64,000 bases of DNA from Candidatus Onstottus arcticum (GTDB taxonomy: Bacteria > Acidobacteriota > Blastocatellia > UBA7656): NCBI GenBank assembly GCA_038040485.1, contig JBBPIE010000006.1:142435-206434 (forward strand), in the 5' to 3' direction. Under the pieces are notes generated by a model. The model was not told where the DNA came from. It did not search any database and saw only the letters and a program-made list of their open reading frames with translations. This document shows, piece after piece, positions 6,235 through 18,813 of the stretch (positions are counted from its first letter, which is position 1; the number at the start of each line of letters is the position of its first letter). A program made the position numbers and the translations under genes.

Positions 6235-6675
6235 TCAAGCCGGACTGTGCCCGGCTTCAGAATCGAACGGCGCACCGCCAACCGGATCGCTTTTTCCCAG
6301 CGTGACCACAGTCGCGCCCCAGCCGCCGGCGTCCGCCGGTGCGTCCCCGTACTCGCTGACGTATGGCAAGCTTAAGAGAATCGAGCGAACGATCTCGCGC
6401 TGAACACCGACGCCTTTGCCGTGAATGATTCGCAGGCCTGTCACGCCGCGACTGTGAGCTTCGGTGATGTAGTCTTCGACCACGGCGCGAACCTGTCTGG
6501 GCGGGATTGAATGAAGGTCGAGAACGTCTGTGAACTCGAGCACGACGAGGTCGGGAAACGGGTTCTCGGGGTCCCACGGCTGGTCGTCCTCGACGCCTTC
6601 ACCGCGAGCAATCGGGGATTGGTCCTTCTTAGGAAGCAGCCGCCTGGCTGCCCTGAGCAGGAAGTCGAAGCTCAT
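6235..6675 (-). CDS. Smr (small MutS-related) domain protein
   Basis: 146 aa, ATG start. C-terminal Smr nuclease domain VLDLHSIPPRQVRAVVEDYITEAHSRGVTGLRIIHGKGVGVQREIVRSIL. Confidence 0.8.
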   Translation of the reverse strand: MSFDFLLRAARRLLPKKDQSPIARGEGVEDDQPWDPENPFPDLVVLEFTDVLDLHSIPPRQVRAVVEDYITEAHSRGVTGLRIIHGKGVGVQREIVRSILLSLPYVSEYGDAPADAGGWGATVVTLGKSDPVGGAPFDSEAGHSPA

Positions 6676-6921
6676 TCCGAGATGATATGCGCCGCCGAGC
6701 GAGCGCTCATCTGTTTTCCGTAGTTAGTTGGAGCAGCGAGTTGCTTAGTCATAGGCGGCGTTTCCTCAGTTTGGCGATGCTAGATAGCAGACTTTGTCTT
6801 GCATAGAGATGCTTGGAGCATATACTCTCCCTCCGGGCTGTCAACGGCAAGAGTTCCTATGCTGCCTTGAGTGAAGGTCGGCAACAGCGATACTATTCGA
6901 TTTCCTTGGGAAGCGTTGCGA

Positions 6922-7146
6922 ATGTCATACCGAACCATTAAAGAGCCGGAGCAGATCCGAAGCGTCAGCGTTTCCGACGTTATCGCCGCGGTCGAGGCGC
7001 TGGGCCCTTCCAAAACAGGTGCGATACGTCCCCGAGTCGCACGTGGTGGTGGTGGTTCGTGGTCCCATAGTTTCGGTCGGCGACATCGGCACTTCCGCGG
7101 GGCCGCCGCCAAGAAATCGTTTGCCCGAGCCGCCACGAAGAGATAA
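6922..7146 (+). CDS. hypothetical small basic Gly/Arg-rich protein (74 aa)
   Basis: ATG at 6922 (MSYRTIKEPEQIRSVSVSDVIAAVEALGPSK...RVARGGGGSWSHSFGRRHRHFRG). It ends 11 nt before the next gene. It sits in a lower-GC islet. No recognizable family. It may be non-coding. Confidence 0.2.
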   Translation: MSYRTIKEPEQIRSVSVSDVIAAVEALGPSKTGAIRPRVARGGGGSWSHSFGRRHRHFRGAAAKKSFARAATKR

Positions 7147-7157
7147 GCAACTCGCGC

Positions 7158-7763
7158 ATGGCCAAGCCTACCTACTCTGAACGCATATTCATTAACGTAC
7201 CCTTCGATCCTCGTTACCAAAGACTCTTCCGCGCACTCGTTTTCGTGATTCACGATTGTGGCTTCGTGGCACGCTGCGCCACTGAGGACGACAATAGTCT
7301 GCAGGTTCGCGTTGACAAGCTTTACGAGATAATTCGGACAAGCAAGTACAGCGTCCACGACATTTCGCGGCTGCACGCAAGGTACAACATGCCCCTAGAA
7401 CTGGGAATTGTCCTTGGAGCGAAACGGTTCGGCAATGCCCGACACAAGCAGAAACGTGCGCTGATTCTTGATACTGAGGCGTATCGCTACCAACGATTCT
7501 GTTCAGATATCGCGGGGCAAGATATCCGGGCGCACGAAAACGGGGTAGAAGGCTTGATCCGTAGCGTCAGGAATTGGCTTCGTGCGAGCCCGGATACCCA
7601 GGGAATCATCTTGCCGAGTGCTGACTTCATCTATCGTCGCTACCGTGCATTCTCCCGGCGTCTGCGAGGACTCTGCGCGGCTGTTAACCTAGATCCCGAA
7701 GACCTGCATTTCCTTGATCTCAGGGTCCTTGTCACTGGCTGGCTCTCGGTTAATCCGCGCTAG
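7158..7763 (+). CDS. hypothetical protein with TIR-like (DUF1863/ThsB-like) sequence pattern
   Basis: 201 aa, ATG start, GC roughly 52% against a background of about 62%. The pattern IFINVPFD (beta-A) ... TSKYSVHDIS ... YNMPLELGIVLG (possible catalytic Glu) ... KRALILD matches the order of the TIR/SLOG core blocks by eye. No HMM was run. Confidence 0.35.
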   Translation: MAKPTYSERIFINVPFDPRYQRLFRALVFVIHDCGFVARCATEDDNSLQVRVDKLYEIIRTSKYSVHDISRLHARYNMPLELGIVLGAKRFGNARHKQKRALILDTEAYRYQRFCSDIAGQDIRAHENGVEGLIRSVRNWLRASPDTQGIILPSADFIYRRYRAFSRRLRGLCAAVNLDPEDLHFLDLRVLVTGWLSVNPR

Positions 7764-8206
7764 CGTTGCTTTGGGAGCACGGCGGTTCGCGATACTCGGG
7801 CACGCTGTCAGGCCGGCATTTCCATAAAGCTGGCGGGCTCTGGTCGCGCTCAATGTCTTGTTATCAACCGCGATGAAGGGTTTGCTCCCTTACGCTGAAT
7901 TGTACATGGGCCGGGTTCGGCACCGTGATTGGGAACCGAAGCCCTGCGACCGGGGCCGCCACGTACTTCTAAAAGCTCGACAGCGACGAGATCCGGCGGT
8001 TCAGAGTCTTCAGGCGTCGCGCCTTTTAATGGTTGTGCCTCGAACGATGAAAACACGCCTGGCAGGGGCCTCAAGATCGAACAGCTCTCCCATGAAATGG
8101 CCCTAGCTTGCCTGTCCTTTTGAAACCATGAATAATTGAGGTCCGACTTGCTCTCGCGCGCCAGGACGCCTCGCACAGAGGCGCGCGGTTGTGCTTCTGT
8201 GCCAGT

Positions 8207-9013
8207 ATGATCTTACTTCGCCTCACGCTTCTTCATGCCCTGATCTTCGTGGTTGTCTGCGACCTTTTAGCTCAGACTCCGAGCCAGACAAAGCAGAATT
8301 ACCCGGCGGTGATTAAGGACTCAACCGAGCGCCGCGCTCGGGCGGAACGCGAGTGGCGGCGAATGCTCGATTCTTACGGCATTCCTCAGACACCTCCCGA
8401 TCTTTATCCGATTACTTACACGCCCCGTTCGCTGTTGGGAGTAACCGGCGGGATCAAACTGATATCGTTCAAGCCCGAGCCGGGGTCGGAGAATCTGGCG
8501 TTACGCGAAGCACTTCGGCGTTTCCTCGATCGTTGGCGCGAGATGCTGGGCGCCGAGCCGGCAGCGGTCTCGCTGCTCAGCAACGACGAATCGGGCGACA
8601 CCCAGCGCTTGACCTACAAGCAAGCCAACTACGCGTTTCCCATCGCGGGCAACGCGGGCGAGATGGTGGCGGTCTTGAGCCGCGATGGAAGGCTCCTCCA
8701 ACTCGATTCGCGTTTTATACCCGTCGTCGAGCTCCCCTCGCGGCCCTCGATCGATCGAGACACGGTAGCCAAGAAGGTAGTTGGCCGGACCTTTACCTAT
8801 TCGGACATCGCCGGCCGCGAGCAGCGAACTCAGATCGGCGGGCTCGCGGAAGTCACCGTCAAACGGCTGGTCATCCTTCCCATCGAGAAGGCCGATTCGA
8901 CCGAAGTGCATCTGGCCTGGGAGATCGTCGCGGGCAAACAGCTCTCGTGGACGATCTACATCGACGCGATCAGCGGGCAGGAGCTCAAGGTGGCTCAGAA
9001 CTTTCAAACATAG
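8207..9013 (+). CDS. hypothetical secreted protein
   Basis: ATG at 8207 gives the signal peptide MILLRLTLLHALIFVVVCDLLAQTP (track start 8189 is TTG). No recognizable domain. Confidence 0.6.
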   Translation: MILLRLTLLHALIFVVVCDLLAQTPSQTKQNYPAVIKDSTERRARAEREWRRMLDSYGIPQTPPDLYPITYTPRSLLGVTGGIKLISFKPEPGSENLALREALRRFLDRWREMLGAEPAAVSLLSNDESGDTQRLTYKQANYAFPIAGNAGEMVAVLSRDGRLLQLDSRFIPVVELPSRPSIDRDTVAKKVVGRTFTYSDIAGREQRTQIGGLAEVTVKRLVILPIEKADSTEVHLAWEIVAGKQLSWTIYIDAISGQELKVAQNFQT

Positions 9014-11366: not shown

Positions 11367-11546
11367 AGGGCGAAAGGGCGAGGGGGCGAAGGGCGAGGGG
11401 CGAAGGGCGAAGGGGTGAGGGGCGAAGGGCGAGGGGCGAAGGGCGAGGGGCGAAGGGGCGAAGGGCGAGGGGCGAAGGGCGAGGGGCGAAGGGGCGAGGG
11501 GCGAGGGGCGAAGGGGCGAGGGCGAAGGGGCGAGGGGCGAGGGGCG
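11367..11546 (+). repeat. G-rich tandem heptad repeat (GGGCGAR)n, about 25 units; canonical G-quadruplex motif on the + strand
   Basis: Directly visible: gggcgaa/gggcgag/ggggcgaa units without interruption from 11367 to 11546. It sits between the stop of the 9063-11345 gene and the next gene. ORFs read through it give Gly/Arg- or Pro-rich low-complexity artifacts. Confidence 0.9.
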
Positions 11547-11568
11547 AGTGCTTGGTGGACAGCAATTG

Positions 11569-13272
11569 ATGACGCGGACGGAAGGAGAGCCAGAAACGGA
11601 GACGCGGCGACCCGGCGACGAAGCGCGCTCAGCCGAGGTAGCCTATGAAGGCGCTGTTAACGACGCAGCCGCTGATCGCCCCCTCCCCCCTTCGCCCCCT
11701 CTCCCCGTCGCCCCCTCACCCCCTCGACCTGTCGCGCCAAGCCGCCGGCTCCGCGCTCCTCTTGAGATCACAGCCGCGTTCCTGCTGATCCTCCTCGTGA
11801 TGGGTTGGATCGAGTTCGCCGGCCCTGCAATTCTCGACAACGACGGCTACTATCACATTCGCTGGGCGAAGATGGTCCGCGAAAGCTTTCCTCACTTGCC
11901 GCCTTTCAAAGCGCTGCCGCTGACGACGCTCGATGAGCAACACTACGTAGATCACCACTACCTTTTTCATGTCCTGCTCATCCCCTTCACGTTCGGCGAT
12001 CTACGAGTCGGCGCGAAGCTCGCAGCCGTTGTCTTCTCGAGCCTCGGGATCCTGTCGGTGTTCGCGCTGCTTGTAAGCTACCGCGTGCGATATCGGTGGT
12101 TGTGGCTCGCGCCGATGATCGCAAGCTCTGAACCGTTCCTCTATCGAATGTCGATGACGCGGGCGCCTGCGTTGTCGCTTGCTCTGTTGGGCCTCGGCGC
12201 GTACCTGGTCCTCAAGCGCAAGCCGCTCCTGCTCGCGGTGCTCTCGTTTGTGTTTGTCTGGTCGTACAGCCTGTTCCCGCTGACTATGGCTTTCGCAGTC
12301 GCGCACGCGATTGCGATTTATCTTTCCCAGCGCCGCTTAGAGTTTCGTTCAATCCTCGCAACAGGGATCGGGATCGTCGCGGGCCTGATAATCAATCCTT
12401 ATTTCCCGAAGAACCTCACGTTGTTTCGCGAGCACCTGTTGATGAAGACCGGTGGGACTTACTCGGTAGACGTCGGAGTCGAGTGGTACCCGTACGATAC
12501 GTGGGTGATCATCGGCTCGAGCGCGCTCGCATTCGGGATCTTCTTTGCGGGGCTTCTGGCGTTCGACTATCGAAGCCGCACGCGCGACCCGAAGCCGCTG
12601 TTCTTACTGCTGGTATCGACGATGTTTCTGTTGATGGCTTTCAAGTCGCGGCGCTTTATCGAGTACTGGCCGCCGTTCGCTGTCGCGTTTGCCGCGTTCA
12701 CGATCAGCCCGAAGCTCCAGACGATGAGCTTCTCGTGGATGACTCGCACGCGAGACCGCGCAATCGCGGCACTAGCGGCGGCTACCATCACTGTAGTCGC
12801 GGTTGTGAATGTTTGCTCGGCCGTGCTCCTGGCTCGCGCCGACGTTCGCTCCGAAGCCGACCCGTTCGCTTACAAGGGCGCAAGCGAATGGCTCGCCGCG
12901 AACACGCCTCCGGGTTCGATGGTGTTCAACACGGACTGGGACGACTTTCCGATGCTGTTCTACTACAACCCGAACAACACATACATAGTCGGACTTGACC
13001 CCACGTATCTATACGATCGCGACCGGCAGTTGTGGAAGCTGTACGCGGACATCACGCTCGGCAACGAAGACAACCCCGCCCCGTTGATCAGGGATCGCTT
13101 CGGCGCGGAGTACGTGTTCACAGACAACGAGCACTCGGACTTCATGCAGAATGTAGAAGAAAGCGGCGACTTCGAGAAGGTGTATGAGGATAAGTTCACG
13201 ACGGTGTTGAGGGTCCGCAAGCCTGATGATCCAAGGGCTAATGTGTCGGAAGGACAGGGAACCGCGCGATAG
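11569..13272 (+). CDS. polytopic membrane protein, putative GT-C-fold glycosyltransferase (about 10 TM + periplasmic C-terminal domain)
   Basis: ATG at 11569 (track GTG at 11548). Many TM helices. Loop motif DNDGYYHIRW after TM1 resembles the periplasmic acidic loop of GT-C enzymes. The N-terminal codons (PLPPSPPLPVAPSPP) overlap a C-rich inverted copy of the upstream G-repeat (11677-11729). Confidence 0.55.
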   Translation: MTRTEGEPETETRRPGDEARSAEVAYEGAVNDAAADRPLPPSPPLPVAPSPPRPVAPSRRLRAPLEITAAFLLILLVMGWIEFAGPAILDNDGYYHIRWAKMVRESFPHLPPFKALPLTTLDEQHYVDHHYLFHVLLIPFTFGDLRVGAKLAAVVFSSLGILSVFALLVSYRVRYRWLWLAPMIASSEPFLYRMSMTRAPALSLALLGLGAYLVLKRKPLLLAVLSFVFVWSYSLFPLTMAFAVAHAIAIYLSQRRLEFRSILATGIGIVAGLIINPYFPKNLTLFREHLLMKTGGTYSVDVGVEWYPYDTWVIIGSSALAFGIFFAGLLAFDYRSRTRDPKPLFLLLVSTMFLLMAFKSRRFIEYWPPFAVAFAAFTISPKLQTMSFSWMTRTRDRAIAALAAATITVVAVVNVCSAVLLARADVRSEADPFAYKGASEWLAANTPPGSMVFNTDWDDFPMLFYYNPNNTYIVGLDPTYLYDRDRQLWKLYADITLGNEDNPAPLIRDRFGAEYVFTDNEHSDFMQNVEESGDFEKVYEDKFTTVLRVRKPDDPRANVSEGQGTAR

Positions 13273-13321
13273 GGCTTTGGTCCGTTGACGCTCTAAATTT
13301 CAACCACTATTGTCCTCAGGA

Positions 13322-13583
13322 ATGAAAGTACGTGATGTCCTCAAGTTGCTACCTGAAGCTGGATGGTATCCTGGTTGCAACTGAGGGTAGTTACGACAAG
13401 ATCAAGCATCCGACAAAAGTGGGGTGGGTGACCGTTCCTGGTAAACCCAAAGATGATCTGGCGATTGGCGCGTTGAACAGCGCTTTGCGACAAGCGAGAA
13501 TGAAGAAAAAAGGGGAGCGAGACTATGCGATATGCAATCGTGATCGAAAAAGCGGAGAACAACTACGGAGCTTATGTTCCTGA
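13322..13583 (+). pseudogene. hicA: hicA toxin (mRNA interferase HicA), disrupted by a +1 frameshift near 13370
   Basis: ATG at 13322 reads MKVRDVLKLLPEAGWY (HicA N-terminal helix consensus), then hits TGA at 13382. The +1 frame (track ORF 13332-13583) continues LVATEGSYDKIKHPTKVGWVTVPGKPKDDLAIGALNSALRQARM, which is the rest of HicA. Deleting one C at about 13370 restores a canonical HicA. Confidence 0.55.
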
Positions 13584-13737
13584 TTTGCCTGGATGCATAG
13601 CGACTGGAAAAACAATCGAAGCAACAGAAAAGGAAATCCGTGAAGCCATCGAGTTTCATTTGCGGGGACTTCGCGAAGATGGATTACCCATTCCAGAACC
13701 GTCAAGCCGTGTCGATTATGTGGAAGTCGCCGCTTAA
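13525..13737 (+). CDS. hicB: HicB family antitoxin (UPF0150, RNase H-like fold)
   Basis: 70 aa MRYAIVIEKAENNYGAYVPDLPGCIATGKTIEATEKEIREAIEFHLRGL matches the HicB N-domain consensus. It overlaps the hicA 3' end. Confidence 0.85.
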   Translation: MRYAIVIEKAENNYGAYVPDLPGCIATGKTIEATEKEIREAIEFHLRGLREDGLPIPEPSSRVDYVEVAA

Positions 13738-13822
13738 CCTTCTATTCAAATCGAAACCAATCACACCTATAAGACGAGCTGAGCAATTGTGCTCGGATTG
13801 CGATACGGAGTAAGCTCTCGCT

Positions 13823-17432: not shown

Positions 17433-17525
17433 GGAGAAGTCGCCTAGTGGCTGAGGGCGGCGGTTTGCTAAACCGCTATAGGCTGTAAAGGCCTATCGAG
17501 GGTTCGAATCCCTCCTTCTCCGCCA
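17433..17525 (+). tRNA. tRNA-Ser (anticodon GCU), CCA encoded
   Basis: Acceptor GGAGAAG/CTTCTCC, D-arm GCC..GGC, anticodon stem GCGGT/ACCGC with loop TTGCTAA, long variable arm, T-arm GAGGG TTCGAAT CCCTC, discriminator G, CCA. Confidence 0.9.
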
Positions 17526-18472: not shown

Positions 18473-18740
18473 TTGAGATCTCCGTCAAGTCGTGGAGCAA
18501 GCACAATCTGCAAAGGAGTTTCTGAACAAACCGCCTGCTCGGAGCTAAGAGAATATTCGACGGCTTCGGACGTGTCCACCGGCCCGCGACCCCGCGCGAA
18601 CCCCGCGCCTTTCCGGCTCCGCGGTTGGTCGGTGATGCGGTCGACTTCTAACCGCGGAGGCGCCGAGACGCGGAGGCTTGCGCAGAGACTACCGCGGCCC
18701 TTAATAATGAAGGCCGCCAACGGCGGCGGCCTTGAGTGAG

Positions 18741-18813
18741 TACCCGCGGCGGGATTCGAACCTGCGGCCTCTTGCTCCGGAGGCAAGCGCTCTATCCACT
18801 GAGCTACGCGGGC
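18741..18813 (-). tRNA. tRNA-Arg (anticodon CCG), CCA not encoded
   Basis: Reverse complement GCCCGCGTAGCTCAGTGGATAGAGCGCTTGCCTCCGGAGCAAGAGGCCGCAGGTTCGAATCCTGCCGCGGGTA. Cloverleaf with anticodon loop CUCCGGA. Confidence 0.85.

Follow-up and report, generated by a model that had tools for sequence, protein, structure and literature searches.

NADases with a TIR domain have a central part in the immunity of bacteria, plants and animals, and further branches of these enzymes, such as DUF4062, continue to emerge. In the Cap12 protein SfSTING, residues R78 and N80 coordinate the ribose and the phosphodiester of NAD+, E84 is catalytic and, when filaments form, a loop residue of the opposite TIR, D110, completes the active site (PMC9402430). 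The locus addressed here lies in a stretch of 64,000 nucleotides from Candidatus Onstottus arcticum (Acidobacteriota; contig JBBPIE010000006.1, positions 142,435 to 206,434 of the forward strand), hereafter the window. It is a cassette of two plus-strand genes, the partner gene (6922..7146), encoding a 74-aa basic protein, and the gene of a TIR-like enzyme (7158..7763, stop codon included; open reading frame (ORF) call), encoding a 201-aa product. Both ORFs had been placed at these positions by the original prediction, made from the DNA letters alone, which proposed that the longer one encodes a possible standalone, ThsB-like TIR protein of antiphage defence. The call of a TIR-like fold is right according to a structure model and a role in conflict or defence is plausible, but the protein is neither standalone nor a ThsB.

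The enzyme of the window is identical to "hypothetical protein AABO41_07900" of an Acidobacteriota metagenome-assembled genome. A word-indexed search retrieved 1,616 homologues at E ≤ 1e-3, all of about 205 aa, annotated as hypothetical and devoid of any Pfam domain, and an exhaustive profile search extended the family to 3,441 clusters at 50% identity with the same threshold (831 at E ≤ 1e-30). At least 584 loci with an enzyme relative were found in GTDB species representatives. Relatives occur in Acidobacteriota, Gemmatimonadota, Poribacteria, Latescibacterota, Verrucomicrobiota and Planctomycetota, as well as in Desulfobacterota, Bacteroidota, Cyanobacteria and Actinobacteriota. Two copies of the gene are present in certain genomes (OZ246979.1, OY970284.1). 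Identity across phyla, 50–60%, is unusually high. Neither the enzyme nor the small ORF of the window has a match in Pfam, PADLOC, NCBIfam or PHROGs, and neither the enzyme family nor the partner motif was found described in the accessible literature and libraries, a scope that excludes Burroughs & Aravind 2020. A phage-borne origin was considered and dropped, as just four enzyme loci occur in 2.9 million IMG/VR contigs; at least two of these four, possibly three, carry the partner motif too, with weak motif scores.

The best AlphaFold2 model of the enzyme (predicted local distance difference test score, pLDDT, 80.6; predicted template modelling score, pTM, 0.82) displays a four-stranded beta-alpha core (residues 9–105) followed by three confident helices (130–198). 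The core is a flavodoxin-like alpha/beta fold with parallel strands A–D(E) and intervening helices, as in the TIR superfamily, and the predicted catalytic core as a whole (residues 1–127, four beta-alpha units) is encoded by 7158..7538. The four blocks singled out by the original prediction, IFINVPFD (10–17), TSKYSVHDIS (61–70), YNMPLELGIVLG (76–87) and KRALILD (99–105), are real and are the most conserved parts of the family. Their proposed order, beta-A, beta-C, glutamate helix and beta-D, agrees with the model, in which they fall on strand 1 (9–13), strand 3 (64–68), the start of helix 3 (78–91) and strand 4 (100–104). The C-terminal helical domain (residues 128–201; 7539..7760), delimited by the AlphaFold helices and by conservation, corresponds to no known family. 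Its helices (130–142, 155–175 and 185–198) have a pLDDT of 88–97 and its conserved residues are R138, W140, L141, P153, R161, Y162, F165, L169, P170 and W195; no Pfam domain was detected in residues 128–201, neither one of the sensors found with PF10137 (STING, cNMP-binding or SAVED) nor any other.

Thirty columns are invariant in an alignment of 42 sequences, among them F11, N13, P15, D17, H67, D68, R75, N77, M78, P79, E81, G83, G87 and K99, and R51, N77, E81 and G83 remain invariant in 150 diverse representatives. As in catalytic-type TIRs, the glutamate E81 lies at the start of a helix (78–91); it is invariant in both sets and falls on E84 of SfSTING. The latter correspondence comes from the best match of a family profile (A4) among PDB sequences, Cap12 SfSTING (7un8), which served as a lead for mapping residues only, the deposited chain being offset by 8 residues. 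In this alignment, P74-R75-F-N77-M-P-L-E81-L-G83 of the family lies on P-R-D-N-V-V-F-E-F-G of SfSTING and S116-D117-I-A-G120 on T-D-L-D-G. R75, N77, E81 and D117, each of them invariant or almost invariant, thus correspond to R78, N80, E84 and D110 in an alignment that is not significant on its own. The putative NAD-site residues are F11, R75, N77, E81 (catalytic) and D117 (loop aspartate that would act in trans). The segments of the model with a pLDDT below 50 are residues 73–77 and 116–125, i.e. the putative NAD-site loops, and their predicted disorder would agree with a site that becomes ordered only upon assembly.

The weak sequence signals of the family point to effector-type TIRs, not to the signal-producing ThsB type favoured by the original prediction. 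In lenient individual Pfam scans, 60 of the 150 diverse members match PF10137 at E ≤ 1 (best 4e-4), over enzyme residues 45–128 and profile positions 34–112 of 119. No other family is matched by more than five members, those being TIR domains fused to a few of them. Furthermore, the PADLOC "Effector TIR" models of CBASS (cyclic oligonucleotide-based antiphage signalling system) are matched by 29, 10 and 9 members. In the Pfam search suggested along with the original prediction, the enzyme of the window itself had no match, the weak PF10137 matches coming from other family members. DUF1863 (PF08937), the family to which ThsB belongs, is matched by one member of the 150, which probably carries a fused canonical TIR, and hhalign against a 24-sequence ThsB_TIR alignment gave a probability of 0.5%. 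Globally, the enzyme core is best viewed as a distant branch of effector-type TIRs with a putatively intact NADase-type site, distinct both from PF10137 as delimited and from ThsB.

Some members depart from the common architecture. The enzyme of the window and its nearest relatives (P0003 and P0019) lack 7 residues of the loop between strand 3 and helix C (window residues 71–75; consensus T-x-L-D-x3-R-L-P) present in most of the family, a clade-specific deletion beside the putative active site. Four others (P0248, P0274, P0275 and P0286) have in common a C-terminal extension of about 110 residues with the motif ...LEYQEG..DEHY.C... and no Pfam match, and a further four (P0258, P0307, P0331 and P0385) carry an additional N-terminal domain, a canonical TIR_2 or SEFIR.

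The second component is the small ORF, the basic nature of which had been correctly noted (16 R/K, namely 11 R and 5 K, plus 3 H, versus 4 D/E, namely 1 D and 3 E; net charge about +12). Its 74-aa product has a conserved motif at the N-terminus, and the tail behind it, rich in R, K, H and G, evolves fast. The motif, a candidate docking peptide, corresponds to residues 1–30 (6922..7011), MSYRTIKEPEQIRSVSVSDVIAAVEALGPS, and fits the consensus derived from 52 distinct sequences, R-x-[IV]-K-x-P-P-K-x-G-x-[LVI]-[ST]-x3-[VIA]-x2-A-[VA]-x2-[VLI]. In these sequences, the arginine is invariant, and a hydrophobic residue is always present at the hydrophobic positions, +2 and those of the last helix turn. 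The peptide of about 30 residues is composed of three elements: R-x-[IV]-K as an extended segment, P-P-K-x-G as a turn, and a helix of amphipathic character. The copy of the window scores 37–39 bits with the hidden Markov model (HMM) of the motif.

The partner is the reason why the enzyme cannot be called standalone. Among 89 loci compared (80 genome loci, 8 metagenome look-ups and the window), a motif scoring at least 10 bits with the HMM is adjacent and co-oriented in 71, and five more have weak adjacent matches; in a first pass, 55 of 56 motif matches of at least 18 bits were adjacent and on the same strand. Even loci scored as having none include four with visibly related variants (L035, L036, L066 and L076). 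Checking the conservation of the genome context, as advised with the original prediction, thus revealed a conserved pairing. The partner is located upstream in 42 loci (Acidobacteriota, Gemmatimonadota and most others), where the motif begins a basic protein of 60–110 aa or ends a longer one (DUF2188-motif), and downstream in 29 loci, mainly from Poribacteria, where the motif is N-terminal. A position rule is reported from these arrangements: the enzyme gene is always abutted by the part of the partner gene that encodes the motif. The spacer between the partner stop and the enzyme start is 11 nt in the window, and the two genes overlap by 4 nt in one relative. The pairing of the enzyme with a motif partner is nearly universal, and the two genes look like a new cassette of toxin/immunity type. 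The statements about fold and active site and about gene pairing are made with high confidence.

A database entry matches the 74-aa partner product exactly, and its closest relative, of 79 aa (L093), is alike at the N-terminus only. A word-indexed search with the small ORF found just two homologues, because the protein is short and evolves fast. Over the first 31 codons, the window and L093 differ by 13 synonymous and 5 non-synonymous changes, and their basic tails cannot be aligned; therefore, the ORF is translated and the constraint bears on the motif only, which is under purifying selection. An alternative GTG start at 6871 would give a 91-aa partner; the homologues start at the position equivalent to the ATG at 6922, which is preceded at 9 nt by a ribosome-binding-like site, GGAAG.

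Two loci display altered copies of the cassette. In L093 (611–953), the partner is intact and the downstream gene lacks the TIR core (residues 1 to about 130), the C-terminal helical part being left in another frame; the locus is a decayed cassette that retains its putative antitoxin-like gene. In L088 (6001–7530), the enzyme gene is in tandem duplicate with a weak motif-like segment upstream of each copy, and the first copy is apparently frameshifted.

The motif is not restricted to small basic proteins, the remainder of the partner being interchangeable. It is fused to a complete CBASS oligonucleotide cyclase (PADLOC, 1.5e-131) that keeps the GS and DxD motifs, to a ThsB-type TIR (2e-17; at least 22 clusters at 90% identity) and to DUF2188 (1e-20), the PADLOC candidate PDC-S16. 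Further modules are TPR repeats, a GntR helix-turn-helix (HTH) and a weak GIY-YIG-like module (MUG113 match at E 0.097, below threshold). In other cases, the remainder of the partner is a 600-aa protein without known domain or a basic tail alone, often with a second strand-like element, "TGRF[IV]". When a motif-ThsB protein was modelled with AlphaFold, its first 47 residues came out as a low-confidence coil and helix that do not pack against the TIR domain of the protein itself, as would be expected if the peptide takes up its fold on a different protein.

Two of the loci with fused partners deserve description. In a locus from Poribacteria (L006, 2106–7932), a type II CBASS made of a cyclase-E2 fusion and a SAVED effector is directly followed by the enzyme gene and a second cyclase, which has an N-terminal extension of about 50 residues containing the motif and is 68% identical to the first, canonical cyclase; in one copy, that of L006, N replaces the third catalytic aspartate (FHINILP vs FHVDILP). 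In L096 (1–8549), the enzyme gene, a motif-ThsB_TIR gene and a HEPN_AbiU2-like gene lie between the hsdS and hsdR genes of a type I restriction-modification operon.

The environment of the cassette is highly variable. No third conserved gene was found, the 439 neighbouring ORFs of at least 150 aa falling into 350 distinct clusters, and the commonest Pfam or PADLOC families of the neighbours recur just two to four times. Neither ThsA nor SLOG, Macro or any other Thoeris effector is recurrent beside the enzyme in about 90 loci, and the cyclase partner is limited to some loci of Poribacteria; in the window, no cyclase lies near the enzyme gene. Some copies are clearly found in defence islands: one has a type II CBASS alongside, together with an HTH-M78 regulator and an Eco57I-like gene; one, accompanied by a HEPN_AbiU2 gene, is inserted between hsdS and hsdR; a TIR_2 fusion member adjoins Lamassu; and several copies from Poribacteria lie behind a gene encoding a type IIG/PglX-like methyltransferase of 970–995 aa.

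These data suggest a mechanism in which the enzyme would be an N-glycosidase, most probably a NAD+ hydrolase, the active site of which would be completed when two TIR cores pack, D117 being supplied by the neighbouring subunit as in SfSTING. The basic motif peptide would dock on the enzyme, which bears eight invariant acidic residues (D17, D33, E43, D68, E81, D105, D117 and D122). The docked peptide could then block TIR-TIR assembly and keep the enzyme inactive in the manner of an antitoxin or, as a second option, could nucleate assembly once a cue is sensed by the variable part of the partner. In the window partner, this part is a disordered basic tail that could bind nucleic acid. Release or assembly would lead to NAD+ depletion and growth stop, as in abortive infection or toxin-antitoxin systems. 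The analysis shows the TIR-type fold with its conserved set of NADase-type residues, the obligatory gene pairing, the selection on the motif, the modular fusions of the motif to immune sensors and a mobile, multi-copy and toxin-antitoxin-like behaviour of the pair; the NADase chemistry, the docking as a physical contact, the sense in which it regulates and a role in defence are inferred. The full functional model, in which a docking-peptide partner controls a TIR-like effector with NADase activity, appears about equally likely to be right or wrong.

A more speculative extension, rather unlikely, treats the 30-residue motif as a portable handle through which otherwise unrelated sensors would be linked directly to one common TIR-like NADase by docking. 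The candidate sensors would be the CD-NTase, the ThsB-TIR, DUF2188/PDC-S16, TPR, HTH or a bare basic tail, and the handle would take over the task that a diffusible second messenger has in CBASS, Pycsar and Thoeris. In a bolder variant of this idea, the enzyme would covalently modify the invariant arginine of the motif.

Several observations weigh against the NADase effector model. Only one of the five AlphaFold2 models of the enzyme is confident, the other four reaching just 60–65. No sequence match to a TIR family attains a curated threshold: the gathering cut-off of PF10137, 24.7 bits, is not reached by any member (best scores 17–19 bits), and the enzyme of the window itself has no PF10137 match at E ≤ 1. 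Against PDB sequences, phmmer with the window enzyme and hmmsearch with the A1 and A4 family profiles found nothing significant; the alignment with SfSTING has an E value of 1.2 and is persuasive solely because the four functional residues are family invariants. The enzyme is devoid of any recognisable ligand-sensing domain of the Cap12 or PycTIR kind. No natural fusion of enzyme and motif was detected among the 392 proteins retrieved; linkers of the TIR_2 fusion proteins are vaguely motif-like, yet without a motif score. Lastly, the copy of the window and several others lie among ordinary genes (Smr, aminotransferase), outside defence islands.

Many features of the cassette would also be those of a classical type II toxin-antitoxin system, in which the TIR-like protein would be a growth-arresting toxin without dedicated phage sensing, and the partner a labile basic antitoxin, with an N-terminal motif for binding the toxin and a basic tail that may serve to repress the operon. 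Indeed, the genes are short, co-oriented and very close or overlapping, their order is reversed in some lineages, the neighbourhoods vary without a third conserved gene, some genomes have two copies, one decayed locus has kept the partner and lost the toxin core, one partner has a GntR HTH and the locus of the window is outside any defence island. However, the partner is repeatedly fused to immune modules (CBASS cyclase, ThsB and PDC-S16/DUF2188) and some loci belong to defence islands. This explanation is judged rather unlikely, bearing in mind that it overlaps mechanistically with the NADase effector model and is inseparable from it by sequence alone. Less probable still is that the enzyme is an N-glycosidase of the deoxyribosyltransferase, DNPH1, MilB or LOG type, the substrates of which would not be NAD+ but nucleotides or modified bases, in the metabolism of salvage, detoxification or DNA modification. 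None of the 25 commonest weak Pfam matches is to a family of nucleoside 2-deoxyribosyltransferases, while PF10137 is matched by 60 of 150 members; the R-x-N-x3-E plus D-x2-G pattern fits the NADase site of SfSTING, and an obligatory peptide partner and fusions to immune modules would be unexpected for a salvage enzyme.

Two further possibilities keep the TIR-like fold and change its role. The enzyme might be an accessory regulator that binds or degrades a nucleotide made or used by its partner, or that chaperones or represses motif proteins and so prevents their auto-activation. Most partners, including that of the window, have no enzymatic domain, and residues of catalytic type would hardly be completely conserved in a protein that does not catalyse; this role is very improbable. 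About as remote, or slightly more so, is a ThsB-like infection sensor making a signalling nucleotide for a separate effector, as in Thoeris. The TIR fold and the conserved glutamate would suit such a sensor, one partner variant is itself a ThsB-type TIR and a canonical TIR_2 or SEFIR domain is added in some members; the profile comparisons with ThsB and PF08937 reported above, the lack of any known Thoeris effector conserved alongside in about 90 loci and the affinity of the sequence to effector-type TIRs all speak against it.

In the window, the cassette follows genes for an aminotransferase, DUF1573 and Smr and precedes a gene for a 274-aa protein with a weak PepSY match only. As the original prediction had recorded, no ThsA-like effector is adjacent, the immediate neighbours being Smr and the 274-aa protein. 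The Smr gene (6235–6675, minus strand) is divergently oriented and is separated from the cassette by an intergenic region of 246 bp with 52% GC (6676..6921), which is presumed to hold the promoters of both. The sole consensus promoter match of this region is on the minus strand (6844–6817); the scan for promoters and terminators found no clear plus-strand promoter or terminator for the cassette, and an Rfam search of 6400–8400 matched no RNA family.

The original prediction had described the region as a low-GC islet (about 52%) that may have been acquired horizontally. The GC content of 6700–7800 does lie below the mean, but it amounts to 55.3%, versus a window mean of 58.5% (standard deviation 2.3%, 1.1-kb windows), i.e. 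an unremarkable z of −1.35 at the 9th percentile. The GC content at third codon positions (GC3) is 0.60 in both cassette genes vs 0.70–0.73 in the four flanking genes, which hints at a foreign origin or an atypical codon usage and no more. Horizontal acquisition thus retains modest support, from GC3 and from the patchy spread over many phyla, whereas bulk GC is too weak to add any; for the same reason, the low-GC islet was dropped as a sign of recent transfer.

Other features of the window can be mentioned briefly. The 425 nt downstream of the cassette (7764–8188) contain no convincing gene or Rfam match; an antisense ORF of 108 aa (7850–8176) has flat GC1/2/3 values of 0.60/0.55/0.54, unlike genuine genes in the window. 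A dip in GC to 0.48–0.50 at 13200–13800, the lowest of the first 16 kb, is far deeper than that of the cassette. About 24 tandem GGGCGAG heptamers (11367–11548) lie just past the stop (11345) of a 760-aa ORF and are followed, about 130 nt later, by six to eight copies of a roughly reverse-complement unit, TCGCCCC (11676–11735). This repeat region has a GC content of 0.69–0.72 and a GC skew of +0.40, and the repeats could be a long hairpin, a G-quadruplex structure or a repeat-rich coding segment. About 10 kb downstream of the cassette, genes for tRNA-Ser(GCT) and tRNA-Arg(CCG) lie on the plus (17433–17525) and minus (18740–18813) strands, respectively.

The family is unseen by Pfam, NCBIfam, PADLOC and PHROGs and is therefore missed in current annotation of defence systems; an HMM-style signature of the enzyme and the motif of the partner could be used for genome mining. 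If the docking-peptide model is true, the cassette would provide a simple, testable two-protein system in which to study how a TIR active site is kept off and turned on, and the model would explain the odd N-terminal extension of CBASS cyclases, ThsB and DUF2188/PDC-S16 proteins encoded beside an unannotated gene. The wiring through a portable handle, if true, would be a previously undescribed and widespread logic of TIR immunity, with thousands of clusters in more than ten phyla.

Among known systems, the closest are Cap12/TIR-STING (SfSTING) and PycTIR (PF10137, CAP12-PCTIR_TIR), which have the TIR fold in common with the enzyme and constitute the only family with recurrent weak sequence matches. 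The P-R-x-N-x3-E-x-G and D-x2-G pattern of the enzyme aligns with R78, N80, E84 and D110 of SfSTING, and some enzyme genes of Poribacteria pair with a CBASS-type cyclase. However, all the matches are under the Pfam threshold, and the enzyme has a private helical domain of 75 residues where a STING, SAVED or cNMP-binding sensor sits in the known proteins. Furthermore, its usual partner is a tiny motif protein and not a cyclase; activation by a cyclic nucleotide is not indicated.

The DUF4062 TIR-like NADases, Swarozyc and Evangelion Eva01, are also similar: in the accessible parts of their descriptions (bioRxiv 10.64898/2026.05.01.722283 and 10.64898/2026.06.25.731849), a TIR-like core with residues equivalent to F11 and E81 of the enzyme is followed by a short auxiliary (AUX) region, to which the C-terminal helical domain would correspond. 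PF13271 is, however, matched by just one of the 150 members (E 0.065). Moreover, in these parts the core and the AUX region of Eva01 and Swarozyc belong to a single protein and a partner gene is not mentioned, whereas the enzyme is nearly always partnered. ThsB of Thoeris (PF08937, DUF1863) has the same general TIR-like fold and the same order of strand A, strand C, glutamate helix and strand D, but there is no profile similarity (Pfam, PADLOC ThsB, hhalign) and no ThsA-type effector, ThsB being present only as a module fused to the motif. With nucleoside 2-deoxyribosyltransferase, DNPH1 (Rcl) and MilB, the likeness is structural only, with no sequence-profile signal, and the set of conserved residues and the gene context differ.

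Like type II toxin-antitoxin systems, the cassette consists of two small, adjacent, co-oriented and tightly linked genes that are mobile and multi-copy, of variable location and invertible order, with an occasional HTH-fused partner. It differs from them in that known families of toxins or antitoxins match neither of its two proteins and in that the conserved 30-residue peptide of the partner is also grafted onto large immune proteins. The cassette belongs with the TIR-effector conflict systems, and the small ORF that had been overlooked is the key to the system.

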